A DNA stretch of 64,000 nt from Roseimaritima ulvae (GTDB lineage: Bacteria; Planctomycetota; Planctomycetia; Pirellulales; Pirellulaceae). A program made the translations under genes and the position numbers. The stretch lies in assembly GCF_008065135.1 (NCBI RefSeq), contig NZ_CP042914.1, positions 3,699,404-3,763,403 on the forward strand, given 5' to 3'. How positions within the stretch are numbered: the stretch's first letter is position 1; the number at the start of each line of letters is the position of its first letter. The notes under the pieces were generated by a model, which was not told the DNA's origin, searched no databases, and saw only the letters and a list, made by a program, of their open reading frames with translations. Positions 15,534 to 62,580 of this stretch are shown here, in pieces.

Positions 15534-16383
15534 TCCGCTGGAGCCGATCCGGCGGAGCATCGCTTCGCCAGCGGACCGAGTTCGCTGGGCCTGCTTGCTG
15601 GAAGCCACCGCGCCTAAAGCCGGCAATGTGTTCCCCGGCGTAGATTTCGAAGACCTTCGCTACACCGATTTTGTTGCCGCCGCCGATGCCGTGGCGCCGG
15701 TACTGACCTCGCCGTCGCCGGGCGTGTCCTGTGGTGAACGAATTTTGCAAGCCGTGACGGTCACACGCGATGTCTGCGGTTCCAACGTGAACCTAGGCAT
15801 GGTGTTGTTGTTGGCCCCCCTGGTGATCGCCGAATCCAATCGCCAGCGCCGAGGACGTTGCTTGTCGGAGGCCGTGGCTGAGGTGTTGAGTTCGCTAACA
15901 CCCAACGACTCGGCCGATGTCTACGCCGCGATCGCGTTGGCACAGCCCGGCGGATTGGGGGACAGCCAACAGATGGACGTTCGCGAGGCAGCTCCGCCGA
16001 ACCTGGTCGCGGCGATGCAGGTGGCCGCCGAGCGCGACCGCGTCGCCCTGCAGTACGCTTGCGGATTTTCGGATCTATTGGGCGAGCGAGTGCTGGGCAC
16101 ACTGAGCCGTTCGATCGCCACCTGCGGCGATGTGCTGGGCGGCATCCAGCGGGCTCAGATTGAAATCTTGGCGGATGCGTCTGATTCACTGATCGGGCGA
16201 AAAGCAGGGCCGAAAATGGCGGAAGAAGCGCAGCGGCGAGCGGCCGAGGTGTTGGTGGCCAAGGATTTCCATGCCGCCTGGCAGGACTTCGACCGCTGGT
16301 TACGCGCCGACGGGCACCGCCGCAATCCCGGCACCACAGCCGACCTGCTCGCCGCGGGACTATGGTGTCTGCTTAGCCCGTAG
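15493..16383 (+). CDS. CitG/MdcB-family protein (ATP:dephospho-CoA triphosphoribosyl transferase-like). It overlaps the upstream hydrolase gene by 41 nt.
   Basis: The CitG-like pattern is PKAGNV...DF. No citrate-lyase or malonate-decarboxylase genes lie nearby. Confidence 0.55.
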   Translation: MRSVLRWRLVAVTDPLEPIRRSIASPADRVRWACLLEATAPKAGNVFPGVDFEDLRYTDFVAAADAVAPVLTSPSPGVSCGERILQAVTVTRDVCGSNVNLGMVLLLAPLVIAESNRQRRGRCLSEAVAEVLSSLTPNDSADVYAAIALAQPGGLGDSQQMDVREAAPPNLVAAMQVAAERDRVALQYACGFSDLLGERVLGTLSRSIATCGDVLGGIQRAQIEILADASDSLIGRKAGPKMAEEAQRRAAEVLVAKDFHAAWQDFDRWLRADGHRRNPGTTADLLAAGLWCLLSP

Positions 16384-16406
16384 CCGAAGTCGTCAGACTT
16401 TGGACG
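16377..16406. repeat. Single REP-B copy; its GTAG supplies the TAG stop codon of the CitG-like gene
   Basis: The sequence is cccgtagccgaagtcgtcagactttggacg. Confidence 0.65.
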
Positions 16407-21062: not shown

Positions 21063-21107
21063 CCAAACTCTGGCGAGTTCGGCTACGCCTTACCATTCGG
21101 CTACGCC
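21063..21107. repeat. REP-B copy plus a partial copy (- orientation)
   Basis: The sequence is ccaaactctggcgagttcggctacg ... ccattcggctacgcc. Confidence 0.65.
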
Positions 21108-21138: not shown

Positions 21139-21204
21139 TCTTCTTCTGTTCGCTTCCAGCCCTGCCAATTTCGGTAACGGCTCCCTACGATGAGGAACGA
21201 CTCC

Positions 21205-25437: not shown

Positions 25438-25575
25438 GCCCCTGGCCCGTGTAAAAAAGACGTCTCTCCTTCTCCAGAACACGGGCCGGGGACCCATGCT
25501 ACGGTTTCCAGAACACGGGCCGGGGACCCATGCTACGGCTTCCAGAACACGGGCCGGGGACCCATGCTACGGGGA
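25438..25575. repeat. REP-A remnant at the IS junction plus three tandem REP-A copies (ccagaacacgggccggggacccatgctacgg x3). The last GTAG supplies the TAG stop of the giant ATPase gene.
   Basis: Read directly. The spacers between copies (ttccagaa) are identical, so this is not a CRISPR array. Confidence 0.75.
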
Positions 25576-28500: not shown

Positions 28501-30840
28501 CGATTCCATGCTGCGGGCCCGTGATTCGATTCCCGTCAAGATGCGATCGGCCGCGTTGGCCAAGGATTCGGCGCGGCGATTCCGCTTTTCGACCAGCTGG
28601 ACTTTGCGGCTTTCAAAGGCGTTGTACAACTCTTCGCGGCGTTCGGTCAGTTGCTCGATGAACTCGTCAAATTCGGCGAACCGTCCTTCCAGTTCTTCCA
28701 GCTGGACCATTACTTTGGTCAGATACTGTTCACACTTTTCGGGCGTGTCACAGATATCCAAATAGCCAGCAACGGTTTGTTCCAGCAATTTCAGTTGCGA
28801 GGCGAATTCCGCTCGGCCTTCGCCGCTGGCCAATTCACTGGTGCGGGCTTTCAAACGGCTGCGGACGCGGTTCAGCGAGGCAAAAACGTCGCTGATCTGA
28901 TCGATGATCTGGGTGCGTTTGGTGGTGTCATCGATTTGCAGATTACTGACCGTTTCGGTCAACAGTTCCAATTGCCCCGAGGCTTCGTCGATATGTTCGT
29001 CCAGCTTTTTGGCATCCGCAACCGTAGCCACCGATTCGACCTGTTGCTCGGTATCGAGCACGCGTTGCCGGTAAGGTTGCAGGGCATCGTCTTGCAGTAG
29101 GAAATCCACGCAGCGACGGCTGACGCGTTCGCTGCGTTCGGCGATATCGGTCTCCAGTGCATCGATGCGTTCCCCATCGACGTACCGCAACTCCCGCAAA
29201 CCGATGGCGTGGCCGCGTTGGGTACGCAGCTGAGCCAGGGCATCGACAAAGGCGTCTATGTTGTCGAACCGCGAACGTTCGATCGACTTGATAAGCGTTT
29301 CCACGGCCTGTTCGACCGCGGATGTCTTTTCCTCGGTGTCACGGCGGACGCGGACCACACGTTCGAATTCTTCGATGGCTGCGTTTGCGGTATCACGGAT
29401 GGAACGCAGCGGTTCATCCAGACGCTGGGTTTCGGGTTTATCCAACCAGAAATAGCTGTCCAGGACATCGCCCGACTTCTTGGCCAAATCAACGTACAAG
29501 CCGTCGTAGCTGTCGTCCTTGTCGATCAACTGCATGATTTCGCTGCATTCGGCCATGCCGCGAACCAGTTCTTTGTTGCCGATTTTGAACAGCAGCGAGT
29601 CGGTGTTGCTGTGGGCCACGTAGTCGGGGCCGGTAAACGGCGTCTGCCATAATTGAATGGCGTGATGTTTCTGCGGCTGTTCCTGCGCCCGGAAGCAAAC
29701 CATCAGACCATCGTCGAAAAACGTCTGTCCGTTACAGATCAGCGGCGTATCGACCTCTTGGCGAATCAGGTTGTAACGCAGTTGGACGTAGGTGCCGTGG
29801 GCATGATTATAAAACAGGTACAGGAAGTCTTCGCCGTTGCTGGCCGCAATCGATCGCGCATAAACCATCTCCGACAGCCCATGGTCGAAGCGCTTAAAAT
29901 CCCCGGTTTGCAGATAGTAGCCGCCGGAAAAAATGATGCCGTGGTCATCGGGCAACAGGATGCAGGCGTGTTGGATATCATCCAGCCGCATCGCCTTTTG
30001 AATCTTGGCGTTAAACAGCAGGTAGCGAGCATCCCGTTCTTGATAGGGATGCATCTTCAGCAGGATCAGGTTTCCCAGTGTGGCCCAGTGGACTTCCGCG
30101 TCGTCCAGCGTCTGATCGGGGTTGTCGACCGGTTCGGCGTAGATGCCTTTCCCGGACGCCGTGTTATCCTCCACTTTGACCGTCAGGTCACCGCCCACCG
30201 TTTCCACGAACACGCGATCTTCAATGGAGATGTGCGGGTGTTCGCCATAGCGGTGTTGATCCCGCGTGGCTCGCTGCCACACGAATTCATGCTGCGAAGG
30301 GTAGACAACCTCGTGATCGCTGCGGTTGTCAATGTATTCAAAGCGGCTGCCCACACGCCGCCATTTAAAGGTCTTGATGTCCGACTCGGACTTGCCGACC
30401 TGGAACACCATATAGACAAACGGTCCGGCGGTGAAGAACTTTGCGAAAGTTGTGTTGCGATAGAATCGGTACAGTTCGTGAAAATCGCGTTCAAAGCGAT
30501 CGTCGTCGATCATCTCCTTCAGCGGGGCCGCGTGGAAGGTGCGATCTTTCAGGCAGTAAACGCCAAACACATCTTCCAGAGTGGTTTCGGTCTTCAAGCC
30601 GAACTGGACGTTGTAGCCGAACAGAAACTGGTTACCGATGGCGATCAAATCCCGCGGCACACAATTGTGCTCGGTCGTTATCCGCTCGGTGGCCAGCAGC
30701 TGTGTTTGGATATTGCCAAACGTCGCTGAGCGTTCCTCGTTGAGCGTTTCGATCCGGCTACGAAGCTTGCCCGCCGCATCACGCAAGCGGTTGCGAAGCA
30801 CCTCGTAGGTACCGGTTGTCATCGAAGTATCGGCAGTCAA
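25567..30840 (-). CDS. Giant (1757 aa) P-loop ATPase. The AAA+ core (Walker A LLLISPPGYGKTTLMEYIANRL, Walker B NVLLYLDDIQ) sits at ~residues 1115-1300. It is preceded by ~1100 aa including a long coiled-coil region and followed by ~450 aa of unknown function.
   Basis: Walker A and B motifs are read directly. The PPGxGKTT form resembles the RuvB/clamp-loader clade. No transmembrane segment is seen. It is the last gene of the YqiJ-like / flotillin operon. Confidence 0.7.
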   Translation of the reverse strand: MTADTSMTTGTYEVLRNRLRDAAGKLRSRIETLNEERSATFGNIQTQLLATERITTEHNCVPRDLIAIGNQFLFGYNVQFGLKTETTLEDVFGVYCLKDRTFHAAPLKEMIDDDRFERDFHELYRFYRNTTFAKFFTAGPFVYMVFQVGKSESDIKTFKWRRVGSRFEYIDNRSDHEVVYPSQHEFVWQRATRDQHRYGEHPHISIEDRVFVETVGGDLTVKVEDNTASGKGIYAEPVDNPDQTLDDAEVHWATLGNLILLKMHPYQERDARYLLFNAKIQKAMRLDDIQHACILLPDDHGIIFSGGYYLQTGDFKRFDHGLSEMVYARSIAASNGEDFLYLFYNHAHGTYVQLRYNLIRQEVDTPLICNGQTFFDDGLMVCFRAQEQPQKHHAIQLWQTPFTGPDYVAHSNTDSLLFKIGNKELVRGMAECSEIMQLIDKDDSYDGLYVDLAKKSGDVLDSYFWLDKPETQRLDEPLRSIRDTANAAIEEFERVVRVRRDTEEKTSAVEQAVETLIKSIERSRFDNIDAFVDALAQLRTQRGHAIGLRELRYVDGERIDALETDIAERSERVSRRCVDFLLQDDALQPYRQRVLDTEQQVESVATVADAKKLDEHIDEASGQLELLTETVSNLQIDDTTKRTQIIDQISDVFASLNRVRSRLKARTSELASGEGRAEFASQLKLLEQTVAGYLDICDTPEKCEQYLTKVMVQLEELEGRFAEFDEFIEQLTERREELYNAFESRKVQLVEKRNRRAESLANAADRILTGIESRARSMESADEILAYFAADLMVDKIRGIVTNLMELDDAVRVEDIQSRLKTIREDSLRQLKDRQDLYEDGGDTIRLGRHRFAVNTQKLDLTTVLRDQQICLHLTGTQFFEPLVHEDLQAAEDLWTQDLANENNELYRAEYLAVDLFQQWRAIERQARPAVDDNWLRQQISGRFAEGYAKGVHDHDALAILTTLIDIDNKIGLLRHRPTVRAAAWLWWLRLLDPQLREQLTEWIGGFANLARAYPNAQPAREFRQRLVRLLNDPTAEHTPRDASSLSWTELFPQVGAEEIAAYLFDQLVDPANHLTCSGRVAALLTAFNDSLPAIDRRRLLEQSIEANADHPLQAFVLGRNWADAFLAAHPQTDALDPVEAYRDELAIRIAFADDQEFVAQDVNIAVRLEGLAGAHPRIQKGQLTVQYHELLERVGRYRSEVVPRYERLQTTKLRLVDEARDDMRLEEFRPRVLTSFVRNQLLDEVYLPLIGDNLAKQIGVTGEGKRTDRMGLLLLISPPGYGKTTLMEYIANRLGLVFMKINGPAIGHNVTSLDPDEAPNAAAREEVERLNLALEMGDNVLLYLDDIQHTHPEFLQKFISLCDATRKIEGVRNGRTRTFDLRGRRVAVVMAGNPYTESGARFQIPDMLSNRADVYNLGEIIGESRDAFEISYLENCLTSNTVLAPLASASPSDARALIHAAERNSLDGLEMESSFSADQVREMFEVLKKLLKVRDCVLKVNRQYIRSAAQADAYRTEPPFKLQGSYRNMNRIAERVVAVMNEDELQALIIGNYEQDAQTLTTDNESNVLKFKELNGLLTKEEKERWEAIKYAYVESVKMAGLDSDDQAGQLMRQLGSMRDGLESIRQVIARAVAAHDDSAEVRMDERVDGLRQSFSNAGQQLTEAINKTSKQLQQISEFQASNPPDQNVIVQHKVPRVMLDLVRGQFHLMQEWMRPLMLEAGENGRQLDDLKKLIESTLADYDRIRNELEDASDSP

Positions 30841-30934
30841 CTTTATGCCTCACACTTGCACTCGGTGGCGACGCTCGCCGGAGCGTGGAAAACCCACCTT
30901 CTGGCGAAGGTAGCTACGGAAGGTATCAGGAGCG

Positions 30935-33067
30935 TTACGAAACCGTTCCGTTGGACTTGTCCGCCGAATTCTGCACCGTCAACCGACGCACCGGCTGATC
31001 GGCTACGCCGGCGGTCCCGGCCATGCCCAGCAAGGACGTCAGCTGTTGGCGAACGTCATCGGTTTCGGCCAGCCCCATCAGTTTGGCGATCAAGGCCGCG
31101 ATCGAGAGGTCTTTGACGTCGCCGGTATCCAGATTGAACTGCTGGGTCAGCGTCATCAGCTTGTCGCGGAAGTACTCCGGATTGCCGCTGAAGAACGTGT
31201 CTTTAACGTCGGTCGCGACGCGGCTGTTGTAGACAAAGCGATCGATCGCCTTGCCGCCCTTGACGGCCGAGGTGATCTGGTCGAAGAATTCGCCATCGCC
31301 GCCGACGATGTCGATACGGGCGGCACGCAGGGCATCGCCCACGACACCGGCCTGACTTTCGGCGATGCCACGCTGGGCATTGATGGCTGCGATTTCGACG
31401 TCCTTCTCTTTCTCGATCTTGATCTTGAACTCTTCGTGTTCTTTGCCCACGCCGTCCAGCTTCTTCATGGCGTCGGCCTTTTCGGTGATGCCCGTCGCTT
31501 CGCTGTGGTATTTCTCCAGCGAGACCTTGGCTTCGGCCAGTCCCTGTTTCTCCATCGCTTCGGCTTTGGCTTCGATGCCCTTGGCTTCGGCAACGGCTTT
31601 CTTCTCCAGTACGGCGGCTTCGGCCAAGCCTTCTTTCTGCAGCGCGTCCGCTTTGGCTTCCTGAACCTGAGCGTCGGCCAAGCCCGGGGCGGCAGTGGTC
31701 GCGGCGGAACCCTCGGCGATCATCTTTGCCGCAGCGGCGTCCTTTTCGGCGGCGTCGCGTTTGGCTTCGGCTTCCACGCGGATCTTTTCGGCGAACAGGT
31801 CGGCGGCTTCGCGTTCGGCTTGAGCGGCTTTGACCTGTTTGATCAGGTTTTCTTCGGCACTCATTTCGGCAGCGGTGACCTGGACTTTTTTCAGTCGTTC
31901 GGCCATGGCGATCTCTTCGGTGTCCTTGATCCGTTCCTGCTCTTCCACAACGGCTCGTTCGACGGCAACCCGTTCGCGAATGACTTCCTGGATATTACGT
32001 TTTTCGACTTCGATGGCCTTTTCTTTTTCGATGTCCGCAACGCCGACCAACCGCATGCGTTCGGTCATTTCCAGGTCACGGTCGCGGGTGACACGCTCCT
32101 GTTCGACGGCGTCGGTGCGTTCCTTGTTGCGTTGGGCCACAAGGATCTGACGCAATTTGTTTTCTTCGGCGATTCCCAATTCTTCTTCGGTGCGAATCCG
32201 GGCGCGAACCGACTCGAGTCGTTGTTCTTCTTCGACTTTGGCGGCCGAGGCGTGTTCGCGAGCTTTGATTTCGGCGATTTCGCGAGTCTGTTTTTCGACC
32301 GCTTCGACGCGCTGCCGTTCCAGTTCCAGAATCGTTTCTTCCGCTTCCACGTCCTGTTTCTTCAGTGTCTTTTCTTTGTCACGAGTGAACTGGTTTTCTT
32401 TGACCTTCTCGCTGGCCGTCAGTTCCGTGATCTTCTTGATGCCTTCGGCGTCCAAAATATTGTGAGGATTCAGCAGATCCAGCGACGTCTGTTCCAGGAA
32501 GTCGATGGCGGCGTCATCCAGTCGGTAACCGTTCAAGTCGGTACCGATAACTTTCAGAATTTCGCCTTTGAATTCTTCTCGTTGTTCGTACAGGTCGACG
32601 AAGTCGAATTGCTTGCCAACGGTTTTTAACGCTTCACTGAATTTGGCATCAAAGAGTTCACGCAGCGTTTCTAGTTGGCTGCAGCGTTTGGCGCCGATCG
32701 ATTGCGCGACTTCCTTAATCTCTTCAGGGGACTTATCGACGCGAATAAAAAAGGCCACGCGGATGTCGGCGCGGATGTTGTCGCGGCAGATCAGGCCTTC
32801 GGACCCCGTTCTCGCGATTTCAAAACTTTTCAACGTCAGGTCCATGTGTTCCTTGCGTTGCAGCAGAGGGATCACAAAGATGCCGCCCGCCGTGCAGGTT
32901 CTCAGCCCGCCGGCACCACTTCGCACGACCGCTTCATCGGGACCGACTTTGACGTAGTACTTGCTGGCGACAATCACCAACAGGAGCAACATCATCATGG
33001 CGATGCCAATCACGACTAGCCCCGTCTGGGTTAGCTCGGATAAACCAAACAATATGGGAAGCATCAT
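30935..33067 (-). CDS. Flotillin-like SPFH/band-7 protein (YqiK/FloT-like), with an N-terminal TM helix, SPFH core and ~400 aa of E/K/A-rich coiled coil
   Basis: The N-terminal hydrophobic helix is followed by the SPFH-like region (VVRSGAGG...IFVIPLLQR...DNIRADIRVAFFIRV). The long EA-rich heptad segments are typical of flotillins. Confidence 0.8.
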   Translation of the reverse strand: MMLPILFGLSELTQTGLVVIGIAMMMLLLLVIVASKYYVKVGPDEAVVRSGAGGLRTCTAGGIFVIPLLQRKEHMDLTLKSFEIARTGSEGLICRDNIRADIRVAFFIRVDKSPEEIKEVAQSIGAKRCSQLETLRELFDAKFSEALKTVGKQFDFVDLYEQREEFKGEILKVIGTDLNGYRLDDAAIDFLEQTSLDLLNPHNILDAEGIKKITELTASEKVKENQFTRDKEKTLKKQDVEAEETILELERQRVEAVEKQTREIAEIKAREHASAAKVEEEQRLESVRARIRTEEELGIAEENKLRQILVAQRNKERTDAVEQERVTRDRDLEMTERMRLVGVADIEKEKAIEVEKRNIQEVIRERVAVERAVVEEQERIKDTEEIAMAERLKKVQVTAAEMSAEENLIKQVKAAQAEREAADLFAEKIRVEAEAKRDAAEKDAAAAKMIAEGSAATTAAPGLADAQVQEAKADALQKEGLAEAAVLEKKAVAEAKGIEAKAEAMEKQGLAEAKVSLEKYHSEATGITEKADAMKKLDGVGKEHEEFKIKIEKEKDVEIAAINAQRGIAESQAGVVGDALRAARIDIVGGDGEFFDQITSAVKGGKAIDRFVYNSRVATDVKDTFFSGNPEYFRDKLMTLTQQFNLDTGDVKDLSIAALIAKLMGLAETDDVRQQLTSLLGMAGTAGVADQPVRRLTVQNSADKSNGTVS

Positions 33068-33876
33068 GAGGGCACCTCGGAGTCCGCTTGGGAGACGATG
33101 TAGATTCGAGTGTGAGGATCAAACCCAACGATTCGGGCTCGGTCGCCTTTCTTCATCAGGCATCCGTCCGTACGGATGTTCAACAGTAGGGGAGCCGCGT
33201 CGGTCTTAAAGCGTGCTTGACCGAATTTTTCGGTAGCCTGAGCCGTCCAGACGACACATTCTTGTCCCATTAGGTTGGCCGCGTTGTACTGAAGTTCGGG
33301 CGCGAAAATTTTGGTCATCGGTCCGGTTGCCAATTTGGTCAATCCGACGGCGACCACGAAGTTTCTGGCCGAGAGCCCAATACTAGTTAGAAGCGTAGGT
33401 TGGTATCGGGAAAAGTCAAAATGGTTCCAGAACAGCCACGACACGCACCAAAACAGCAGAGTAAACGTGCCCGCCCAGATGATGATGGGGATCTTGCCCA
33501 GGTTCAGCCAGCGGAGCGTCATCATTCCCGCGCCGCCCATTAGATCCGAGGCGTCGTGGCCCACGTCGACGTCCGCCGCCGTCTCGACATCGACGTCAAA
33601 ATCGGCATCCGCCGCGTCCGGCAATCCCGCGGCCACTTCGGGGGCATCCAGATCGGCGCCCAAGTCCCCGACGAGATCTCCGCCCAGATCGGCGTCGGGG
33701 CCGTCCAGATCCATGTCCACGGCACCGACCAGCGACAGCAGCAGATAAGCGATCAACAGCCCCATCAGAACCGACGCCGGCCACATGGGTCCAATGAATA
33801 CGGAATCTAGAAACGTTTCAACAGCGTTCCACACGGGTACGGCGACCTTGCAAACGAGGACTTGGAGAGTTGCCAA
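33064..33876 (-). CDS. YqiJ/NfeD-like membrane protein (DUF1449-like: TM helices, acidic linker, C-terminal OB-fold-like beta domain). It has a 4-nt ATGA overlap with the flotillin gene.
   Basis: The gene order and overlap copy E. coli yqiJ-yqiK. It has 3-4 TM segments and a C-terminal region (VVWTAQATEKFGQARFKTD...RARIVGFDPHTRIYIV) consistent with an NfeD-type OB fold. Confidence 0.6.
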   Translation of the reverse strand: MATLQVLVCKVAVPVWNAVETFLDSVFIGPMWPASVLMGLLIAYLLLSLVGAVDMDLDGPDADLGGDLVGDLGADLDAPEVAAGLPDAADADFDVDVETAADVDVGHDASDLMGGAGMMTLRWLNLGKIPIIIWAGTFTLLFWCVSWLFWNHFDFSRYQPTLLTSIGLSARNFVVAVGLTKLATGPMTKIFAPELQYNAANLMGQECVVWTAQATEKFGQARFKTDAAPLLLNIRTDGCLMKKGDRARIVGFDPHTRIYIVSQADSEVPS

Positions 33877-34006: not shown

Positions 34007-34096
34007 CTGCACTATCGGTCTGCCGGGTGTGTGATATTCTGCATCCTCGTTTTATCCGTTTTTAGCGCTCCGACGAGCGAAGCTGCGAGAACCGCC

Positions 34097-34591
34097 ATGA
34101 AAATCACCTGGAAAGAACTGACGTTAAATCCCGACGACATGGATTTTGACGAACTGCTGAGCGATTGGCGGTGGTTGGTGCCCGAGTCGATGGTGCCGAT
34201 CGTGGTCACCGCCCTGGGCGACCTGTTCCTCCAGGACGACGACAACCGCGTGCATTGGTTGGACACTGGAGCGGGAACGCTGGAGCAGGTGGCGTCCAGT
34301 TTGCCGGAATTCGAACAGAAGATCGTCCAGCCCGAAAATGCGGATCGCTGGTTCCTGCCCCAGCTGATCGGCGACCTGATCGACGATGAAAAACGCTTGG
34401 GACCCGGACAATGCTACAGCTGGGACGTGCCCCCGGGACTGAGCGGTGAAGTCTGCGTCGACAACGTCGAACCCAAAGACATCCGCGTGCATTTCTCGCT
34501 GTTCGGTCAGATTTTTCAGCAAACCAAAGATCTGCCCGAAGGCACGCCGATCACCGAGATCGTGATCGAAGACGACGAGCCCTCAGAGTAG
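34097..34591 (+). CDS. DUF1851 / Tdi1-like (SMI1-KNR4-related) immunity-type protein. The ORF track starts at 34031, but the MKITWKEL start is preferred.
   Basis: The pattern ...VVTALGDLFLQDDDNRVHWLDTGAGTLEQVASSLPEFEQ... matches the GDlfl..dG.v.flD...G.le.ia.sfeeF core I associate with DUF1851 (C-terminal domain of T6SS immunity Tdi1). Confidence 0.5.
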   Translation: MKITWKELTLNPDDMDFDELLSDWRWLVPESMVPIVVTALGDLFLQDDDNRVHWLDTGAGTLEQVASSLPEFEQKIVQPENADRWFLPQLIGDLIDDEKRLGPGQCYSWDVPPGLSGEVCVDNVEPKDIRVHFSLFGQIFQQTKDLPEGTPITEIVIEDDEPSE

Positions 34592-36587: not shown

Positions 36588-36738
36588 CCGAAGTCGTTCG
36601 ACGGTGGAGGCAGGCCGTTCCCGTCCAATCTCTGGCGCGATCGGCTACGGTGCGCTGCGACCACGCTCTGGTGAGCGTAGCTACGGGGACGCGGTAGTTA
36701 GGATGCGCGGTCCCACGCTCTGGCGAGCGTAGCTACGG
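36584..36738. repeat. REP-B cluster of 4 copies (one degenerate + copy and three - copies)
   Basis: The sequence is gtagccgaagtcgttcgacggtgg ... ctctggcgcgatcggctacgg ... cacgctctggtgagcgtagctacgg ... cacgctctggcgagcgtagctacgg. Confidence 0.7.
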
Positions 36739-52145: not shown

Positions 52146-52896
52146 ACCCTCCTTTTTAAGGGGCGCATCCTACGAGCCGCGGCGTGAACCGCGGCGTTTA
52201 GACGAAGTACGCCGAAGGCGTTATAGCCAATAGCCGGCGGTCGAGCGCAGCGACCACCGCCGAAACAGACGCGACGAAAATCTGGCTCCCCTCTCCCCCA
52301 AGCAAGCTTGGGGTGGTGCAGTGGATATCGGATAGCCAGTTAGCTCTCCCCATCTCTTCGCGTTGGTTTCCGGAGCTTGCTTGGGGGAGAGGGGCTGGGG
52401 GTGGCCTGGTAAAAATGATTGCGTGGTGGTTGTCTAGGCGGTTTAGAAACGTCTGGGCGACACGTGTCCCCCCTCCCCCAAATATTTCGCGTCATGAATC
52501 TGGGTTGATAGAGGACTTAGTGCGCGAAATATTTGGGGGAGGGGGGACCGGAATTCGCTCGCGTACCCACGATAAAGCCAGATTGGTTCGGGGCGACCAC
52601 GACAAAGGGTTACGGATTTTTACCAGGCCACCCCCAGCCCCTCTCCCCCAAAACAAGCCTTTGCAGCGGTGTCGTTTGACCTAAAAAACGAGCGGTAGCG
52701 TTGGAATCAAACCTGTTGTTAGCAGGCTTGTTTTGGGGGAGAGGGGGGCCCGATTTTGCCCGTTTCTTTCCGGTGGTGGCGCTGCGCTGACCACCGGCTA
52801 TTGGCTGAAATTCCCTTCGGGAATAGGGCGGGAATCGTTACCGCGTCACTGTCGACTGACGCGGCTCGCAGGATGCGCCCCTTTTTAAGGAGGGTC
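52146..52896. repeat. Giant nested imperfect palindrome (~750 bp, symmetry centre ~52520). At least four pairs of long inverted repeats share the same centre and carry CCCCTCTCCCCCA/TGGGGGAGAGGGG motifs.
   Basis: The pairs are 52146-52181 with 52860-52896 (accctcctttttaaggggcgcatcctacgagccgcg), 52222-52262 with 52770-52811 (tatagccaatagccggcggtcgagcgcagcgaccacc), 52288-52310 with 52724-52752, and 52377-52416 with 52624-52660 (gcttgcttgggggagaggggctgggggtggcctggtaaaaat). A 26-bp perfect inverted repeat sits at 52466-52491 / 52521-52546. Confidence 0.8.
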
Positions 52897-52899
52897 GAG

Positions 52900-52977
52900 C
52901 CTTAGTTCCAGTTTTGCATTAAGAAAAATGCACTTCGCGAATCCTGCTCTAACAAAAAGTGCAAAACTGGAACTTAG
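52900..52977. repeat. AT-rich 18-bp perfect inverted repeat (cttagttccagttttgca ... tgcaaaactggaacttag) adjoining the giant palindrome
   Basis: Read directly. The local GC content is far below the window average. Confidence 0.7.
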
Positions 52978-54734: not shown

Positions 54735-56109
54735 TCAGCGCGACGCCGCTTTCGCGATACTTTCATAATGTTTTTGCTGCAGCGCTTGCAACGTTTGAAC
54801 AATCTCTGGATGGTCGGCGGCGAGGTTCTTGGTTTCGCCGATATCCTGCTTCAAATTTGCCAGAAACAATTTGTCGACGTTCACGCGGCGTTGGCGATCG
54901 GTCGTGTCTCGAGCATTCCCGAGCAGCTTCCAGTCGCCTTGGCGAACCGCCCACTGCGCATTTTTCCCGCCGCCCAGTTGCCAATAGAAATGATCGTGAG
55001 GACTCTCCGCGTCTTGGTTCTTTAACACCGCCGCCAAACTTTTGCCGTCCAGGTGATGCTCGGGAAGTTCGATGCCGCAGAGCTCGGCGATTGTTGGGAA
55101 CCAGTCGCAGCCGGTCGCCAGCTGATCACGGGTTTCGTTTTGGGGGATCGTGCCGGGCATCGAAACCACCGAGGGAACCCGCAGGCCGCCCTCGAACAGA
55201 CTGGCCTTGGCACCTCGGTACGGTCCCGCGTTGCCGCCACCCCAAAACGCTCTTTCCTCGGTTGAATGTCCGTGGTCGGATTGCACCACGATCAGCGTGT
55301 TCTCCCGCAAGCCCAACTGATCCAGCGTGCCGATCAAATCACCGATCTTTTCGTCTACGGTCGAAACAAATTCGGCATACTGACGGCGGGGAGAAGGCAA
55401 GTCCTTGTAGTGTTCACGCCACTTGCTGGTGCCTTGCATCGGGTAGTGCGGCGCGTTGATTGCCCAGTACATGAAAAACGGACCATCGCGATTCGCTTTG
55501 ATAAACTGCTGACCTTCCTCCACCATCAGGTCTAAGAAAAACTGCCCATCGCGAAAGATCTCCTTGCCGTCCCGCCAAAGATCATGACGGTTGGGGCCGT
55601 TCCAGTAGAAGAAGTGGGAATAGTTGTCGATGCAACCACCCATGTGCCCGAAGGAGGAATCGAATCCCTGTCCGTTTGGCATCGTCTCCGGTGTATACCC
55701 TAGATGCCACTTGCCAACGTGCCCGGTGGCGTATCCGGCCGACTTCATCAGCTCGGCGATCGTCATTTCCGAGCTCGGCATGCCGGGATGCCCCTTGCCC
55801 GACGAAACGTTGCTGGGGACTCCGGCGCGTGCCGGGAAACGACCGGTCATCAAACCGGCTCGCGATGACGAACAAATCGCCGAGGGGGAGTACATCTGTG
55901 TAAACCGCACGCCTTGGCTGGCCAATTCATCCAGCTGCGGGGTGTGCAGGTCCCGGGAACCGTAGCAGTTCAAGTCGAGACTTCCCTGATCATCGGTGTA
56001 GATAATGATCACATTCGGTCTTGCGTCCGCAGCACCCACGCGCGGTAGCCGCGACACGGCATGCACCAGAACAACGAAAGACAGTAAACACAGCAGGTTT
56101 CGGATCACG
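54735..56109 (-). CDS. Secreted sulfatase (arylsulfatase / GALNS-like). The ORF track extends to 56414 through a REP palindrome. The start is probably a GTG near 56108 (VIRNLLCLLSFVVLV signal).
   Basis: It has sulfatase signature II (GYATGHVGKWHLG) and signature I with an unusual Ser at the Pro position (AICSSSRAGLMTG). Confidence 0.75.
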
Positions 56110-56174
56110 AAGTTTGACTCCAAAGGGGTAGCAGCAAGCGGATGTCCACGCCCAACAAAACGCAGTGGCCGCTG

Positions 56175-56241
56175 CCGTAGCCGAACTCGCCAGAGTTTGG
56201 ACGTTGGGTTGACCGTCCAAACTCTGGCGAGTTCGGCTACG
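56175..56241. repeat. REP-B inverted pair forming a perfect 28-bp-armed palindrome (REPIN-like doublet)
   Basis: The sequence is ccgtagccgaactcgccagagtttggacg-ttgggttgac-cgtccaaactctggcgagttcggctacg. Confidence 0.8.
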
Positions 56242-56438
56242 TGTGCGCGGTCGTCACGTGTTGTTGGGCGACGGGGTGCACATTGTAACATCGACAGATT
56301 CGTTCCGACCGGGGCAGATGATTTTAGTCTTCTAAACAGCGCCGTTTCGTTAACGCTCAGGGTTTGCCGCCCGCACCGCCGAAACCTACCGATGAACAGT
56401 CTGTTTGCGATCATTGGTTATTTTTGGAGCTGCGTTGG

Positions 56439-57848
56439 ATGACGGTCATCGCCCCGGTTTATTGGCACGAGGGAATGTTTCTCCGCCCCCAGCACTTTCA
56501 GGTCGCCGAACGCAACTTAGAAAGCCAGATCCGCGACAACGTGCAGTGGAATCAGCACTACAGTTGGGGGCTGCGGCGGTTTCAATTGGACGCCGACGCA
56601 CTGGCCAACCATCGCGTGGTGATCTCGGACTTAGCCCTACGCATGCGCGACGGCACGATCGTGTCTTGTCCCGAGATGTGTCAGCTGCCGGAATTGGATC
56701 TGCGTCAAAGCCTTAGCGGGACCCGAGCGTTGACGGTGTTTGCCGCCGTCCCCAAACCCTCGGTGACTCAAAATGCAGACGAAGATCGGGACAGGTATCG
56801 TATCGAAACGCTCGACCTGCAGGACCAAAATACCGGCCAGAACGCTCGTCCGATTCAAGTCCGGCGGCTGAACCTGCGGCTGCTGACCGACGCCGACGAC
56901 CACGCTGGCTTTGCCACTATGCCGCTGATGCGAGTTCGCGGCGCCGATCGCGCAGGCGGAGCGCCGGAACTGGACCGCACCTATATCCCGCCCTTATTGG
57001 CGGTCGACGCTTGGAAGACGCTGGAACAAGAGATCGTGCGGCCCGTGTTCGACCGGATCGGCAAGAAGCTGGAATTGGTTTCCAATCAGGTGATCTCACG
57101 AGGCATCACGTTCGATTCCAGTTCCCAAGGCGACCGTGTCATCTTGGAACAGATGCGGGTTATGAACGAGACGTACGCGGAATTGAGCGTACGAGCGCTG
57201 ATGCCGGGAATGCATCCGATCGACGTGTTCCGCCATCTGTTGAACTTCGTTGGACGGATGGCCGTGTTCACGCCGGCCCGACGCGTCCCGGAGCTGCCCA
57301 AGTACGATCATGACGATCTGGGGCAATGTTTTTGGGCCGCGCGGCGACTGGTCGACGGCGTGCTGGACGCGGTTACCGAACCGGAGTTCTGTGAGCGAGC
57401 TTTTGTTGGCGCAGGGCAGAGGGTGCAGGTAGCGTTGGAGCCGGCGTGGTTGGAACCCGGTCAGCGAATGTTTGTCGCCGTCACATCCAACTTGCCCACC
57501 GAACAAACACGTCAGCTGGTAGAGCGGCGTTTGGACATGAAAATCGGTGCCGGCAGCACGGTCGACGAATTGTATCGGTTGGGACGCGCAGGGTTGCAGT
57601 TCGACCACCAAGACCACCCGCCACGCTGCCTACCGCTGCGACCAGGCCGCGTGTTCTTTGGGATCGATAACTCGCACAGCGAAGACCAATGGGAATCGGT
57701 GCAACGAGAGTTGGCCTTGGCGGTGCGATTTAACGAAAATCTGATCGCCGGCGACGTCCAGGGACAACACGCCATCGGAATCACGGTTGATGGCCATGGG
57801 GCGACGTTGGAGTTTGTGTTGTACGTCGTCCCCCCCTCGGCGATCTAG
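56439..57848 (+). CDS. tssK: Type VI secretion baseplate subunit TssK-like protein (DUF876/VasE family). No other tss genes are present in the window.
   Basis: The N-terminus (VYWHEGMFLRPQHFQ) matches the near-invariant TssK start (W-x-EGMFL-x-PQHFQQ). The internal RLNLRLL...MPLMRV block matches the conserved TssK shoulder motif. The length (~469 aa) is typical. Confidence 0.6.
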   Translation: MTVIAPVYWHEGMFLRPQHFQVAERNLESQIRDNVQWNQHYSWGLRRFQLDADALANHRVVISDLALRMRDGTIVSCPEMCQLPELDLRQSLSGTRALTVFAAVPKPSVTQNADEDRDRYRIETLDLQDQNTGQNARPIQVRRLNLRLLTDADDHAGFATMPLMRVRGADRAGGAPELDRTYIPPLLAVDAWKTLEQEIVRPVFDRIGKKLELVSNQVISRGITFDSSSQGDRVILEQMRVMNETYAELSVRALMPGMHPIDVFRHLLNFVGRMAVFTPARRVPELPKYDHDDLGQCFWAARRLVDGVLDAVTEPEFCERAFVGAGQRVQVALEPAWLEPGQRMFVAVTSNLPTEQTRQLVERRLDMKIGAGSTVDELYRLGRAGLQFDHQDHPPRCLPLRPGRVFFGIDNSHSEDQWESVQRELALAVRFNENLIAGDVQGQHAIGITVDGHGATLEFVLYVVPPSAI

Positions 57849-57896
57849 CGTGCGGGGCACGACTTGTCGTCTGGCGTTTGGTCGGTAGTGGGATCC

Positions 57897-57952
57897 AAAC
57901 GGGAATCCAAACTCTGGCGAGTTCGGCTACGGGGGCGAGTTCGGCTACGGGG
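57897..57952. repeat. REP-B copy plus a partial copy (- orientation)
   Basis: The sequence is ccaaactctggcgagttcggctacgggggcgagttcggctacgggg. Confidence 0.65.
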
Positions 57953-60815
57953 ACGCTTGGACCGTGTAGTTCAGTACGCGGCGGCCATCTTGTTCGGCCG
58001 CTCGCAGCAACAGGGTCTGGCCCAACAGGGAACGACCGTTGGGCAGTGAGAATTCGCGTCGCACCCGCTGGCCAGCGTTCACGCTAACGGTTTGCCGTTG
58101 ATACTGGCGACCGGGCGGAAACAAGCGGCAATCGTAACTCTGACGCTGCTCGGATGAGTTTTCCATTTCCAGTCGCACGACCAAGTTGTCTTGTTCGTCC
58201 AGCCGCGTGGTGATCTGCACCTCCAAACCTTCCGGGCCGACACGCAGTTGCCGATAGACGAGAAACGGATGCGGTCCGGCTTGGGAGAGTCGAAACTGCA
58301 GGGCGATGGTTTCGACGCCCGTTTTAGCGTTGGAGCGGAGCGTGATGGGCACCGGTTGATCCAGAGTTCCCGAGCCGCGGATCTGCCAGGGCACGGGGTA
58401 ACGCGGCAATTCCCAAGCGTCGCCGGCGGACATCAGCATATCGCCTTCGAGCGCATTGGATTGGGGGTTCTTCATCTTCACGGCGACAAACTGCGCACGC
58501 CCCAACAGACTGTCGATGGACGCCCGGTCGAGTTCCACTTCCATCCGGAACTGCGTCATCAGCGGATGCAAGCCGAGGATGAATTTTGGGACCGGACCGG
58601 CTTCGAGCACCTGTCGCGTGACGCCCTGACGATCGACCTTGGCCGCGGCGGTTCGGACGCCCCACACCGATAGTTCTTCGATGTTTTCGCCCAAATAGAT
58701 TTCTTCTTCAGTCGGCTGCGAATTCCACAATACCATCACGCTGCGGTGACCATCGGAGAGCACGATATTGGAACTGCCGTTGGGCAACCGCAGGCTGCCG
58801 ATGCGTTGCAACGTGCCCAACGTGGCGGCGGTGGTTCGCCAGGGCAACAGCATAATGTCGGGCAGGCCATCGGGCTGCAGCAGGCCGGTTTCGGGATTCG
58901 TGGGATCGGACACAAAGGCGGCTTCGACGGCGTGGCCGCGGACGGTGGCCATTCGCAAGACCAGGTCACGGATACGGGTATCGGTGTCGTAGCTAGACTT
59001 GGGCAGCGGATCCAGCAGTAACCAAGTGCGAGTGCTGCCGCTGGACTTTTGCGGGTCCAATTCGATTTCTAGGTAAGCGTCTAGCTCGTCGGCCGTAAAT
59101 GTCTCCGCCTCACTCCGCGTCACGGCTTTCCAAACCCGTTCGCTGCCGGCCGGTTGAGGTTCCAGCCAGGGCCAGGAGAGGACCATATTCAGCGGTTGCC
59201 CGTATCCCTGCAGGCCTCGCTGGATGCTTTCGATGGTTTCTCGCAGTCGAGCCCGGTCGAGGAAGCTGAAGTCGCGTTCGTTGCCCAGTTGCCACCATTG
59301 GACCTTCATCGTCAGACGGCTCATCAGGGTTTCGAGCAGCGGTTGCCAGACGTCTTGATCGCGGAACACATTAACGGCTTGAACTGGTCGTCGAGCGTCG
59401 ATTTCCGGCGCCGTGCCGCTGGGCGGTTGGTTCAGCAAACCCACGACCTGAATGCCGCTTTCCATCAGCCGATTGACCATCCAGGAAAGTTGATCGCCGG
59501 CTTCCAAATCGGCAGCATCGATCCAACAAGGATATTTCAGCCAACCGACGTGGCAGTTGCGGAGCCACTCCGGCAACGCTCGCAAGTCGCCGCGGGGCGC
59601 TCCTTCGGGTAGGGTCCAACCAAACGGTCCGGCTTGGCCCGGCAAGGGTTCGATAACCACAAACGTGGTTTCGGTTTGCAACGCGCTGCGGTCGGCGGCG
59701 ATCAGTTCCGCTGTCATGCGGTAGAACCCTGGCGGCAGGTCCGCCAGTTTCCAATTCGCCAAACCACCGTAGGCCAACAATTGGGAATCATCTTGGTGGG
59801 TGTCGACCGGCGAGATAAAGTCCTCGATCGGCTGCTGGTGGGCATCGAACAGCGTAAAGTGGATGGAGGCGGTTTTGAAACGCAGCCCCATCGCTTCGGC
59901 CGAGATCTCGACCGTATCGCCGCGTGCATAGATTCCCGTAGCCGAGGCACCGCGAACGTGCAGTTGGGGAAATTGATTCAGTTGCAGTTGGTCGAATTGG
60001 ACTTCGCCGCGAATGTCGGCGCCCGGACCGGTCGGCTCCACCCGCACTCGCAAGACCGCTTCGGTACAGCCGGGCGGCGGCGCGATAGCGGGCGTATGCA
60101 CGAGGCTCCAAGACGTTGTACCACCGAGTTTTTCGGTGGCTGTGGTTTTGAGCGGCTGGCCCTGGGCATCGAGGAACACGATTTCGGCCCAACCGCTGTC
60201 GTGTTCCAAACCGTGCGTTTGGATGCGGCTGCTGAGCACATAGCTGTACATCGCACTGACGGGAAATTTGGGACTCTGCAGCAGCGCCCCGCCGCCGTCC
60301 AGCCGCACGCTGAGGTATTGGCTGGAAACCAGGTCGCCCATTGCCGGGGGCAGCCCGGGCATCGCCCCGGCGGTGGCTTGAACAAGACGTGTCCACCGTG
60401 TGGGCAGGCCCGGCAGCCAATTGGGGGTGGCAGCCAGTTTCAGCCGCGTCTGGACCCACCACGGCAGCAGTTTGGCGTCGGCCGCTTTAGCGAACGTTTC
60501 CAACGCGGTTTCGGCGGATTGAATATCAATGGCAACGTATTCGGGATAATTGCGTCCGCTGCGCCGCTGCCAGCCGTCCGGCCAAGTGTCGAAATCGCGG
60601 TCGTCGTGGCGATCGAAGTCCCAACGCTGAACGACCTGTCCGTGCGAGACGCGGGGGGACTGCGCAGGCCGACCGAGCGACGGGGCCGCGGGCGCGGCGG
60701 CATGGGCCCGTGTCAGGCAGCACGCCCAGACCAGCTGGACGGCCAGCAGGATGCCTGCCATAGCCACCACAGGGCAAGTCTTTAGAATAGCGGCGTTCGC
60801 TCGCGTCGGATGCAC
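57945..60815 (-). CDS. Large secreted protein (956 aa) of unknown function, possibly with a glycoside-hydrolase-like TIM-barrel central region
   Basis: It has a signal peptide (AMAGILLAVQLVWACCLTRAHAAAP) and Trp-rich segments. No confident family is recognised. Confidence 0.4.
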   Translation of the reverse strand: MHPTRANAAILKTCPVVAMAGILLAVQLVWACCLTRAHAAAPAAPSLGRPAQSPRVSHGQVVQRWDFDRHDDRDFDTWPDGWQRRSGRNYPEYVAIDIQSAETALETFAKAADAKLLPWWVQTRLKLAATPNWLPGLPTRWTRLVQATAGAMPGLPPAMGDLVSSQYLSVRLDGGGALLQSPKFPVSAMYSYVLSSRIQTHGLEHDSGWAEIVFLDAQGQPLKTTATEKLGGTTSWSLVHTPAIAPPPGCTEAVLRVRVEPTGPGADIRGEVQFDQLQLNQFPQLHVRGASATGIYARGDTVEISAEAMGLRFKTASIHFTLFDAHQQPIEDFISPVDTHQDDSQLLAYGGLANWKLADLPPGFYRMTAELIAADRSALQTETTFVVIEPLPGQAGPFGWTLPEGAPRGDLRALPEWLRNCHVGWLKYPCWIDAADLEAGDQLSWMVNRLMESGIQVVGLLNQPPSGTAPEIDARRPVQAVNVFRDQDVWQPLLETLMSRLTMKVQWWQLGNERDFSFLDRARLRETIESIQRGLQGYGQPLNMVLSWPWLEPQPAGSERVWKAVTRSEAETFTADELDAYLEIELDPQKSSGSTRTWLLLDPLPKSSYDTDTRIRDLVLRMATVRGHAVEAAFVSDPTNPETGLLQPDGLPDIMLLPWRTTAATLGTLQRIGSLRLPNGSSNIVLSDGHRSVMVLWNSQPTEEEIYLGENIEELSVWGVRTAAAKVDRQGVTRQVLEAGPVPKFILGLHPLMTQFRMEVELDRASIDSLLGRAQFVAVKMKNPQSNALEGDMLMSAGDAWELPRYPVPWQIRGSGTLDQPVPITLRSNAKTGVETIALQFRLSQAGPHPFLVYRQLRVGPEGLEVQITTRLDEQDNLVVRLEMENSSEQRQSYDCRLFPPGRQYQRQTVSVNAGQRVRREFSLPNGRSLLGQTLLLRAAEQDGRRVLNYTVQASP

Positions 60816-60890: not shown

Positions 60891-61667
60891 GTGCCTCAAC
60901 TGAATATTTCTGCTCGATTGTCAGCGTATGGACTACCACTGAAGAAAGCATTGCATGCCGCGGCGCGCAGTGGGGCGTCTGCGGTAGAGATCGACGCCCG
61001 AAACGTCATCCGTCCATCCGAATTAACCGATACGGCTTATCGGCAGCTGCGGAAAATGCTGGATGATCTGAATTTGCGGGTTAGTTCGGTTCGTTTTCAG
61101 ACCCGCCACGGTTACGATTACGTGCCGCGTCTGAATGAACGCGTGGATGCCACCAAGGCCGCCATGCGGATGGCGTACCGGCTGGGCTGCAATGTGGTGG
61201 TCAATCAGATCGGCCGCGTCAGCGACAACGCCGAATCGGCAGGCTACCAGCAGATGGCCGCGGTGATCAATGATCTGGGACGCTTTGGCACCCATGTGGG
61301 GGCTTTTCTGGCCGCCGAAACCGGCTCGGAACCGGGCGAACGGTTGGCGGAACTTCTCTCTGCCGACGACAACGTATTCACCGGTGTGGCTTTCAATCCT
61401 GGCAATCTGATCGTCAACGGGTTCTCGGTCGAAGATTCGCTACGGGCGCTATCGCATCACGTCCAGTTGGTGGTCGCCCGCGATGGCGTGCAGGACTTGG
61501 CCAAAGGACGCGGTATCGAAGTCCCCTTGGGCGAAGGCACGGCGGACTTCCCGCAGATCCTGGGCACGCTGGAAGACCGCCAGTATCGCGGCTGGTTTGT
61601 CGTCGGCGAGCAGGGCGATGGCGAAGCCGAAGTGGCTCGCAATGTTCAATATCTCTCCAACCTGTAG
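60891..61667 (+). CDS. Sugar phosphate isomerase/epimerase (xylose-isomerase-like TIM barrel)
   Basis: The AP-endonuclease-2 / XylA-like TIM pattern is consistent (..VEIDARN.., ..GCNVVVNQIG.., ..GEQGDGE..). Confidence 0.6.
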   Translation: MPQLNISARLSAYGLPLKKALHAAARSGASAVEIDARNVIRPSELTDTAYRQLRKMLDDLNLRVSSVRFQTRHGYDYVPRLNERVDATKAAMRMAYRLGCNVVVNQIGRVSDNAESAGYQQMAAVINDLGRFGTHVGAFLAAETGSEPGERLAELLSADDNVFTGVAFNPGNLIVNGFSVEDSLRALSHHVQLVVARDGVQDLAKGRGIEVPLGEGTADFPQILGTLEDRQYRGWFVVGEQGDGEAEVARNVQYLSNL

Positions 61668-61674
61668 TGACGCT

Positions 61675-62580
61675 GTGTTGTATTTGCTTCCCGATCTGAC
61701 CGTTCTGGACATCATCGGTGCCGACGCCGTGCAGATTCTTAATAACCTCTGCACGGCCGACCTGAAACTTTTGCCCTCAGGCGGCGGGGTGGAGACTTTT
61801 GTAACCGAAGTTCGCGGCCGAACGCTCGGTCACGGCTGCCTGTACTCGGCGCCCGACCGACTGCGGATCATCGGTGCCGGCGATCAAGCCGAAACGCTGA
61901 GCGCGCACATCGATCGCTACACGATTCGCGAAGACGCCCAGCCCGAGGACGTCAGCGAGGCGTTCTGCAAAATCTTGATCAGCGGCAAGGACGCGGACCG
62001 GTTGGCACAGCGATGGGGACTGTCCCCGGGCTCTCCGCCGCATTTATCTGTAACCGCAGGTCCGCAAAGCGTTGCCGACCTGATGGTCTACCAGGTTCCC
62101 TGGACCGGGCCGGCGGATTGGTTGTGCTTGGCGCCGGCCGCGGTCCGCGAAGCGTTGCTGGCTGAACTGGCCGAGCTGGAAATGGGCGAGGCCGATGCGC
62201 TCGACTTTCACGCCCACCGCATCGCCGCCGGTTTTCCCTGGTATGGAGTCGACTTGGACCACACCAATCTGCCTCAGGAAGCCGATCGCAATGACGCGGC
62301 GATCTCCTTCACCAAGGGCTGTTACCTGGGACAGGAAACGGTGGCTCGACTGGACGCGCTCGGACAGGTGCAAAAGAAACTGGTGCGTTGGCAGGTGCAA
62401 ACCACCGCTCCGATTGCGGCCGGTACGGCTTTGACTCAGGACGGCAAGAACGTCGGCAAAATCACCTCCACGGTAACGCTCGACGACCACACACTCGCGC
62501 TGGGGTACGCTCGCCGCAGCCACTTCGATGCGGGCAGCCACGCCGAATGCGACGGAGCGGCCGCTATCGTGTTGCCATGA
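61675..62580 (+). CDS. YgfZ/GcvT-like folate-binding protein (aminomethyltransferase fold). The start is probably a GTG/TTG just after the upstream stop; the ORF-track 5' extension overlaps the previous gene.
   Basis: It has the GcvT-like N-terminus (LPDLTVLDIIGADAVQILNNLCTADL) and a C-terminal barrel region. Confidence 0.55.
   Translation: MLYLLPDLTVLDIIGADAVQILNNLCTADLKLLPSGGGVETFVTEVRGRTLGHGCLYSAPDRLRIIGAGDQAETLSAHIDRYTIREDAQPEDVSEAFCKILISGKDADRLAQRWGLSPGSPPHLSVTAGPQSVADLMVYQVPWTGPADWLCLAPAAVREALLAELAELEMGEADALDFHAHRIAAGFPWYGVDLDHTNLPQEADRNDAAISFTKGCYLGQETVARLDALGQVQKKLVRWQVQTTAPIAAGTALTQDGKNVGKITSTVTLDDHTLALGYARRSHFDAGSHAECDGAAAIVLP

Follow-up and report, generated by a model that had tools for sequence, protein, structure and literature searches.

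This study concerns a 64,000-nucleotide stretch of the chromosome of Roseimaritima ulvae (the window), in which a single open reading frame (ORF) corresponds to TssK, a baseplate subunit in type VI secretion systems (T6SS). On every criterion that could be tested, the ORF belongs to the TssK family, and in all likelihood it is the functional tssK gene of a T6SS that is spread over several loci in R. ulvae. This reading is carried by the identity and fold of the protein, purifying selection on its gene, an intact spike module in the same genome, a synteny breakpoint beside tssK, and a multi-locus layout of the system in relatives. We suggest that tssK stands alone because a local rearrangement separated it from its usual partners.

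The product of the ORF is 100% identical to QEG40696.1 / WP_148080292.1, named 'type VI secretion system baseplate subunit TssK [Roseimaritima ulvae]' and encoded on an 8,212,515-bp chromosome; the identity of the gene is thus already in public annotation. An initial annotation, made from the letters of the window alone, had called the ORF TssK-like on the basis of an N-terminal motif, an internal shoulder block and a fitting size, and both profile models and the length of 469 amino acids (aa) agree. PF05936 (Pfam) spans residues 19-434 (profile positions 1-418 of 429; E = 1.3e-76; 258.6 bits against a cut-off of 23.4), and the NCBIfam TssK equivalog TIGR03353 matches over the same profile positions, 1-418 of 429, with 290.4 bits against a cut-off of 100. 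The protein begins with MTVIAPVYWHEGMFLRPQHFQ and also contains the internal block RRLNLRLLTDADDHAGFATMPLMRV (RRLNLRLL...MPLMRV). Residues 9-21, WHEGMFLRPQHFQ, carry the conserved motif W-x-E-G-M-F-L-x-P-Q-H-F-Q and align with residues 9-21 of 5y0e; they are invariant or nearly so in 47 planctomycete orthologs, across which M13, F14, P17, H19, Q21, W43, G44 and R46 do not vary. The similarity is not confined to this short N-terminal motif, a case that the initial annotation had raised: the profile and structural alignments span almost the whole protein, with solved TssK chains aligning over residues 7-431 (5y0e; 2.4e-27) and 6-412 (5m30; 2.3e-21).

An AlphaFold2 model built from the alignment of the 47 orthologs has a mean predicted local distance difference test score (pLDDT) of 82.9, and all three TssK domains are predicted with confidence. 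A Foldseek search of the PDB returned 18 significant matches, consisting of 17 TssK chains and the Francisella homolog IglD, with 5y0e (E = 1e-33) and the baseplate complexes 6giy and 6n38 among them; no structure other than TssK or IglD fell below E = 1e-3, phage proteins included. The shoulder and neck together match 5mwn and 6n38 with a Foldseek TM-score of about 0.78 (0.74-0.79 over shoulder-plus-neck chains), and the head matches the isolated TssK C-terminal domain 5m2y (E = 1.7e-6; TM-score 0.74-0.75). Profile search and structure prediction, both proposed as checks in the initial annotation, therefore give a full-length family match and the three-domain TssK fold. The protein shares its equivalog family, length class, three domains and N-terminal motif with the canonical TssK of T6SS-i (E. 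coli Sci-1, 5m30/5mwn/5m2y/6giy/6n38; 5y0e), although its sequence identity to the solved proteins is only 18-23%. IglD, the T6SS-ii TssK homolog of the Francisella pathogenicity island (8dql), is a distant structural relative (fold search E = 8e-9), and its match is much weaker than those of T6SS-i TssK, with which the planctomycete protein clearly groups.

The gene is under strong purifying selection. The ratio of nonsynonymous to synonymous substitution rates (dN/dS, Nei-Gojobori method) is 0.034 in comparison with a metagenome-assembled genome (MAG) of the same genus, at dS of 1.38, and 0.087-0.115 in comparison with five other relatives, for one of which dS is saturated. Reading frames are intact in all of the tssK orthologs compared. 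In the 47-sequence alignment, the orthologs are about 470 aa long and 46-78% identical to R. ulvae TssK, the named ones coming from Pirellulaceae, Gemmataceae and Pan216. Identity is 93% in the Roseimaritima MAG, 70-78% at the level of the family, and about 50% in Pirellulales/Gemmataceae and in the unclassified planctomycete Pan216.

No T6SS core gene besides tssK lies within the 64 kb, as judged from a Pfam or NCBIfam scan that took in 38 selected ORFs, all about 120 aa or longer, and from a six-frame tblastn search of the whole window with planctomycete probes for TssA, B, C, C2, TagJ, E, F, G, ClpV, Hcp, TssL, short TssM, VgrG, PAAR, DUF6931 and the giant proteins described below. The sole match is a Clp ATPase at 21190-23886, beside dnaK. 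ClpV was considered for this gene and rejected, because the protein is the housekeeping ClpB (TIGR03346, 1286 bits with a cut-off of 1232; ClpV1, 834 bits with a cut-off of 885). The remark in the initial annotation that no other T6SS genes lie nearby is therefore true for the whole window, and T6SS-linked genes start about 4 kb past its left edge. Linkage of tssK to other tss genes, absent from the window, is found at the orthologous loci of relatives.

The nearest T6SS genes of R. ulvae came to light in a search with VgrG from the same-genus MAG. Third among the matches, at 79% identity to this probe, ranks the 'type VI secretion system Vgr family protein [Roseimaritima ulvae]' (P0243, QEG40655.1), a protein of 858 aa with Phage_GPD and Phage_base_V domains that is encoded on the same chromosome as tssK, 41 protein accessions before TssK QEG40696. 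Its locus, read on draft contig LWSJ01000007.1 (L017; the loci read in this study are numbered in this way), has the order PhoD, giant B, giant A, VgrG, p192, PAAR, DUF6931, p147, C39-like, p383, p267 and then unrelated genes. Giant B (1418 aa, with a C-terminal CarboxypepD_reg domain) and giant A (1645 aa) are both intact, as is a 99-aa PAAR ORF (L017 13294-13593) whose product is 76% identical to an Aureliella PAAR protein. The spike components VgrG (TssI) and PAAR are thus both present in the same genome as tssK. A look-up with the beta-lactamase gene of the window also led to LWSJ01000007.1, which overlaps L017 within PhoD, and window positions correspond to 24033 minus the contig coordinate. 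Measured leftward from the window edge under this mapping, giant B occupies 4.2-8.5 kb, giant A takes up 8.5-13.4 kb and VgrG falls at 13.7-16.3 kb, with VgrG/PAAR at 14-17 kb; the module as a whole spans 4-20 kb past the edge, and VgrG is about 70 kb and 41 protein-coding genes from tssK.

The breakpoint that isolates tssK can be seen by comparison with the same-genus MAG (L009). When the DNA is compared, the sulfatase gene and tssK are the only part of the window with which the MAG is colinear (L009 8392-11409 = window 54794-57847). From about 100 bp past the MAG tssK stop, colinearity switches to the spike locus of R. ulvae (L009 11506-21407 = L017 17805-7892). A single junction in the short spacer 3' of tssK therefore splits two blocks that adjoin each other in the congener. 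Copies of a repetitive extragenic palindromic (REP)-like element lie in this spacer, at 57906-57956, and a Logan contig (run ERR3330933) begins at one of them, at about 57909.

The surroundings of tssK were read in a dozen other planctomycete genomes, and these show all stages from a full cluster to a lone tssK. In Pan216, tssK is inside a cluster of TssA, TssB, TssC, TssC2, TagJ, Hcp, a sheath-like fusion, TssK, TssL, a short TssM and two giant genes. The metagenomic relative L008 has the order tssK-tssL-short tssM-giants. In Aureliella, the Roseimaritima MAG and the MAGs L012 and L013, tssK is followed by p267 (convergent), p383, C39-like, p147, DUF6931, PAAR, p192, VgrG and giant A, and in the same-genus genome two giant membrane proteins follow VgrG; the order tssK-p267-...-VgrG-giant was seen in L007, L009, L012 and L013, and the short contigs L015 and L016 have at least the tssK-p267 pair. 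Rosistilla, Lignipirellula and three MAGs have a lone tssK whose neighbours change from genome to genome. In a Pirellulales MAG, the main sheath/wedge cluster runs TssA-B-C-C2-TagJ-E-F-G-ClpV-Hcp-Fha and is without tssK, tssL, tssM and vgrG. A modular T6SS distributed over several loci is thus normal in this lineage, and tssK has split off several times. The initial annotation had offered a dispersed T6SS as one explanation and called it atypical: the dispersal is supported by the second locus with VgrG, PAAR, DUF6931 and giants and by the split systems of relatives, whereas the split itself is not atypical here. Its further idea, that the gene is simply displaced from a complete cluster elsewhere, is in essence borne out, with the qualification that relatives have several modules in place of one complete cluster.

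Some further features of these loci can be recorded here. Between tssK and VgrG, Pirellulaceae have four conserved genes, p267, p383, p147 and p192 (L007, L009, L012 and L013; p267 also in L015 and L016), none of which matches a family above threshold. In six genomes p267 directly adjoins tssK in convergent orientation, and p383 has a signal-peptide-like N-terminus. From their positions, all four are candidate lineage-specific accessory parts of the T6SS. The planctomycete main clusters also contain a second TssC-like gene (523-528 aa), and in Pan216 a further gene, of 475 aa, combines a VipA with a VipB domain and is apparently a fused sheath gene (L005:4438-6009 and 7946-9373; L019:11561-13147).

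We propose that the ancestral Pirellulaceae order, kept in the same-genus genome, was tssK, p267, p383, C39-like, p147, DUF6931, PAAR, p192, VgrG, giant A and giant B, and that a break in the REP-bearing spacer of about 100 bp past the tssK stop put the sulfatase-tssK pair on the far side of the module. The separated gene most probably still serves the usual function. In solved TssK, the neck forms a trimer stalk; in the solved baseplates (6n38/6giy), the shoulder binds the TssF2-TssG wedge; and in E. coli, the head contacts the membrane-complex proteins TssL/TssM. By analogy with these structures, the shoulder of a TssK trimer in R. ulvae would hold a TssE-TssF2-TssG wedge, and its head would dock to the inner-membrane complex and so recruit the baseplate, which in turn would let the sheath and tube polymerise. 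We infer that R. ulvae also has a sheath/tube/wedge cluster, and that the loci are co-expressed.

Several points weigh against this reading. The searches made did not yield tssB, tssC, tssE, tssF, tssG, hcp, clpV, tssL or tssM from R. ulvae itself. A Pan216 TssC probe was uninformative, in that its best 120 matches were all 73-80% identical, proteobacterial ones included, and none was from R. ulvae; a scan of a genome collection with TssK gave eight close relatives, R. ulvae not among them. The sheath, tube, wedge, TssA and ClpV components are present in a Pirellulales MAG, and TssA/B/C, Hcp, TssL and a short TssM in Pan216. On the side of expression, a comparison of the tssK leaders of relatives gave no family-wide shared upstream element that would explain co-regulation, and a consensus scan found no sigma-70 promoter upstream of tssK. 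The right-hand context of tssK was read to the end of the window (64 kb); look-ups with TssK and with the xylose-isomerase-like gene returned only short Logan contigs. As for the cause of the break, REP copies stand at the tssK-side junction but none is present at the spike-locus breakpoint (L017 about 17805-17842), so that a REP-mediated rearrangement is plausible and the evidence for it suggestive only.

A leftover of a lost system, in which the sheath, tube and wedge genes have gone and tssK, vgrG and PAAR persist, still intact but functionless and heading for decay, is unlikely. Such a loss is consistent with the fact that neither the TssC probe nor the TssK genome scan demonstrated a sheath, tube or wedge gene in R. 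ulvae, and with the severing of tssK from its ancestral neighbours. However, the dN/dS of 0.034 obtained with the same-genus genome, where dS is about 1.4, leaves little room for relaxed selection, R. ulvae retains VgrG (858 aa), PAAR (99 aa), DUF6931 and both giants (1645 and 1418 aa) in intact form, and related Pirellulales have complete main clusters. The intact frame, the three confidently predicted TssK domains and the dN/dS range of 0.034-0.115 also lead us to reject the degenerate relic considered in the initial annotation.

The initial annotation had also considered that the TssK fold might have been co-opted as an adaptor in a non-T6SS complex, and the partner could then be, for example, the 956-aa secreted protein downstream or the sulfatase. 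The position of tssK among unrelated genes agrees with such a role, and TssK shoulders are structurally related to the shoulders of phage receptor-binding proteins. Yet the fold search gave no phage protein among its significant matches, the protein passes an equivalog-level TssK model, and its TssK-specific N-terminal motif is invariant. Furthermore, no other tssK locus contains the 956-aa gene or any of the remaining downstream genes, and the neighbours of tssK are entirely different in Rosistilla, Lignipirellula and the three MAGs. No window gene recurs beside tssK in the relatives' loci except the sulfatase, a generic paralog found in the same-genus genome only, and there is thus no basis for a new partner; the conserved neighbours of tssK, wherever they are present, are T6SS genes. 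We consider co-option very improbable. Horizontal acquisition of a stand-alone tssK unrelated to the secretion genes of the host is scarcely credible, for although REP elements flank tssK on both sides and a Tn5-type transposase lies 31 kb off, identity drops with taxonomic distance (93%, 70-78%, about 50%), the G+C content at third codon positions (GC3) of tssK (0.71) is inside the window range of 0.55-0.78, the congener shares the sulfatase-tssK pair and the REP doublet, and the REP family is window-wide rather than specific to tssK.

If R. ulvae tssK is thus part of a dispersed T6SS, the next question is what the baseplate docks to. The planctomycete TssM proteins are 527-534 aa long and match only the Pfam family IcmF-related_N; their third predicted transmembrane helix is at the extreme C-terminus, and they are therefore without a periplasmic domain. 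Giant A (1645-1760 aa) has a weak VWA match and giant B (1418-1771 aa) a CarboxypepD_reg domain, and each of the two R. ulvae giants has one predicted N-terminal membrane anchor followed by more than 1,300 residues. The giants adjoin tssM or vgrG in all seven such loci read. The membrane partner of TssK in planctomycete relatives therefore differs from the canonical one, consisting of a TssM of about 530 aa together with two giant bitopic proteins. It is possible, though we hold this tentatively, that TssK docks the baseplate to a non-canonical planctomycete membrane complex in which the giants replace the periplasmic arm of TssM together with TssJ and so bridge the unusual envelope of planctomycetes, with p267 and p383 as lineage-specific parts, the machine being drawn from at least three unlinked loci. 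No description of the short TssM and the giants was found in the searchable literature.

The region upstream of tssK was also considered. The gene is monocistronic, with a divergent sulfatase gene upstream, a convergent gene downstream and an upstream region of its own. About 180 nt of this region are 79% identical to the same-genus MAG (L009 about 9810-10000), whereas the synonymous sites of tssK differ at 63%, which suggests a leader or promoter constrained at the level of the genus. A family-wide cis element was considered here and rejected, because the leader is only 48-57% identical in the other relatives compared. A scan for intrinsic terminators around tssK gave nothing above chance. 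In the window, the REP core 21-mer, GCCGAACTCGCCAGAGTTTGG, was counted 10 times where 0 were expected, often as inverted doublets; members of the family also turn up at the spike locus of R. ulvae (L017 16747-16805) and in the MAG of the same genus. The doublet upstream of tssK sits within the longest sulfatase ORF and is kept at the same position in the MAG, which indicates that the sulfatase probably starts downstream of the 56414 start; the true spacer upstream of tssK is then probably about 200-300 bp.

Table 1. Coordinates of tssK, its domains and flanking features, and of T6SS-linked loci elsewhere (window positions unless an L number is given)
Feature	Position	Strand	Remarks
tssK coding sequence	56439..57848	+	ATG 56439, stop to 57848; 469 aa; T6SS baseplate subunit TssK
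N-terminal 'shoulder' beta-sandwich, ~aa 1-190	56439..57008	+	AlphaFold2 strands E44-E167; includes the residue 9-21 motif
Helical 'neck', ~aa 191-312	57009..57374	+	four long helices (model H193-221, H233-252, H260-275, H294-311); alignment to 5y0e/5m30
C-terminal 'head', mixed alpha/beta, ~aa 313-469	57375..57845	+	pLDDT mostly 81-90; Foldseek to 5m2y
tssK upstream leader/promoter region	56242..56438	+	between REP doublet and ATG
REP-like inverted doublet, sulfatase-tssK spacer	56176..56241	.	two perfect 28-nt arms, 10-nt spacer
Spacer 3' of tssK, synteny breakpoint	57849..57956	.	~97-100 bp; colinearity ends 57847; REP 57906-57956
Sulfatase, divergent from tssK	54735..56414 (longest ORF)	-	Pfam/NCBIfam; syntenic with tssK in same-genus genome, 76% aa identity
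956-aa protein, convergent with tssK	57945..60815	-	signal-peptide-like N-terminus; without family match
Xylose-isomerase-like TIM barrel	60891..61667	+	
YgfZ/GCV_T-like gene	61483..62580	+	
REP-like copies	27-47, 11512-11569, 14457-14477, 16383-16403, 21063-21083, 36625-36645, 56180-56237, 57907-57927		
p267	L017:17004-17807		without above-threshold family match
p383	L017:15287-16438		without above-threshold family match
p147	L017:14115-14558		without above-threshold family match
p192	L017:12639-13217		without above-threshold family match
Giant/short-TssM loci	L005:12213-19130 onward; L008:12296-21425; L017:467-9657; L007:21111+; L009:19642+; L012:11058+; L013:19776+		

The genes around tssK are listed in Table 1. 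The neighbours named in the initial annotation (a sulfatase, REP doublets, a large secreted protein of unknown function, a sugar-phosphate isomerase and a YgfZ-like gene) were all correct by Pfam/NCBIfam and repeat scans; a WYL regulator is also among them. Of all genes in the window, the sulfatase gene alone shares synteny with tssK in the same-genus genome; it accompanies tssK without belonging to the T6SS.

Farther off in the window, a 186-aa ORF (34031-34591, + strand) has a T6SS_Tdi1_C immunity domain (PF08906, E = 9.8e-10, above the gathering score), with no recognisable effector gene adjoining; on this domain match, it might confer orphan immunity to DNase effectors of the T6SS. A Tn5-type transposase gene (23925-25334, - strand; Tnp_DNA_bind, DDE_Tnp_1 and Dimer_Tnp_Tn5) has a low GC3 of 0.58, and draft contig LWSJ01000007.1 stops inside it, which is consistent with a multi-copy insertion sequence. 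Beside the transposase, a block at 25567-33876 (- strand) encodes a 1757-aa DUF3686/DUF7902 AAA ATPase, a 710-aa weakly flotillin-like protein and a 270-aa protein without an assigned family; the block might represent a membrane-associated or defence-type system not yet characterised. When the uncharacterised neighbours and the DUF3686 island were scanned with PADLOC, it matched the WYL regulator alone, and none of the three genes of the block. A gene-poor segment at 52146-52977 contains nested perfect inverted repeats around the motif CCCCTCTCCCCCAA, with 36-nt arms at 52381-52416 / 52616-52651 and 26-nt arms at 52466-52491 / 52523-52548.

In Proteobacteria, orphan vgrG/hcp/PAAR islands are T6SS genes that stand off the main cluster and serve the same machine. 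Such satellites are usually spike, tube or effector modules, and tssK is almost always in the main cluster. R. ulvae differs from the canonical systems in that its tssK is outside a tss cluster, and from the proteobacterial islands in that the satellite is tssK itself.

For planctomycetes, scattered T6SS genes have been reported before. Blastopirellula marina DSM 3645 was described in 2009 as having 12 T6SS genes in two locations, without a recognisable IcmF (Persson et al., PMC2702493), and Rhodopirellula baltica was listed as one of only two non-proteobacterial carriers of a T6SS (PMC2660368) and is described as rich in T6SS genes (PMC5394234). A recent survey places T6SS-positive species mainly in clades that include Planctomycetota. 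As in R. ulvae, the planctomycete T6SS genes of B. marina and R. baltica are found at more than one place in the genome; the reports on them are limited to gene counts, and a tssK singleton, the tssK-p267...VgrG-giant module and its rearrangement are not described there. A literature search on Roseimaritima and type VI secretion found no papers, and no Roseimaritima or Rhodopirellula entries were found in the supplement of a T6SS survey preprint. Because the rule of linkage that tssK breaks here is routinely broken in the lineage, our finding is ordinary in substance, and it is already known in kind.

Little is therefore at stake in the tssK gene as such, which is a correctly annotated part of a known machine with its isolation explained by one rearrangement. 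The wider points concern the lineage. A window of 64 kb is too small for a secretion gene to be called an orphan in genomes of 7-10 Mb with little operon structure. MacSyFinder models include 'loner' components (PMC4793230); it is our own inference that T6SS detectors based on co-localisation, for example single-locus detectors of the MacSyFinder type (PMC4793230), may under-call or mis-score the T6SSs of Pirellulaceae, a family in which tssK, the spike module and the sheath/wedge cluster routinely stand apart from one another. Finally, we note that the short TssM and the conserved giant proteins could merit study for how a contractile system is anchored in the planctomycete envelope.

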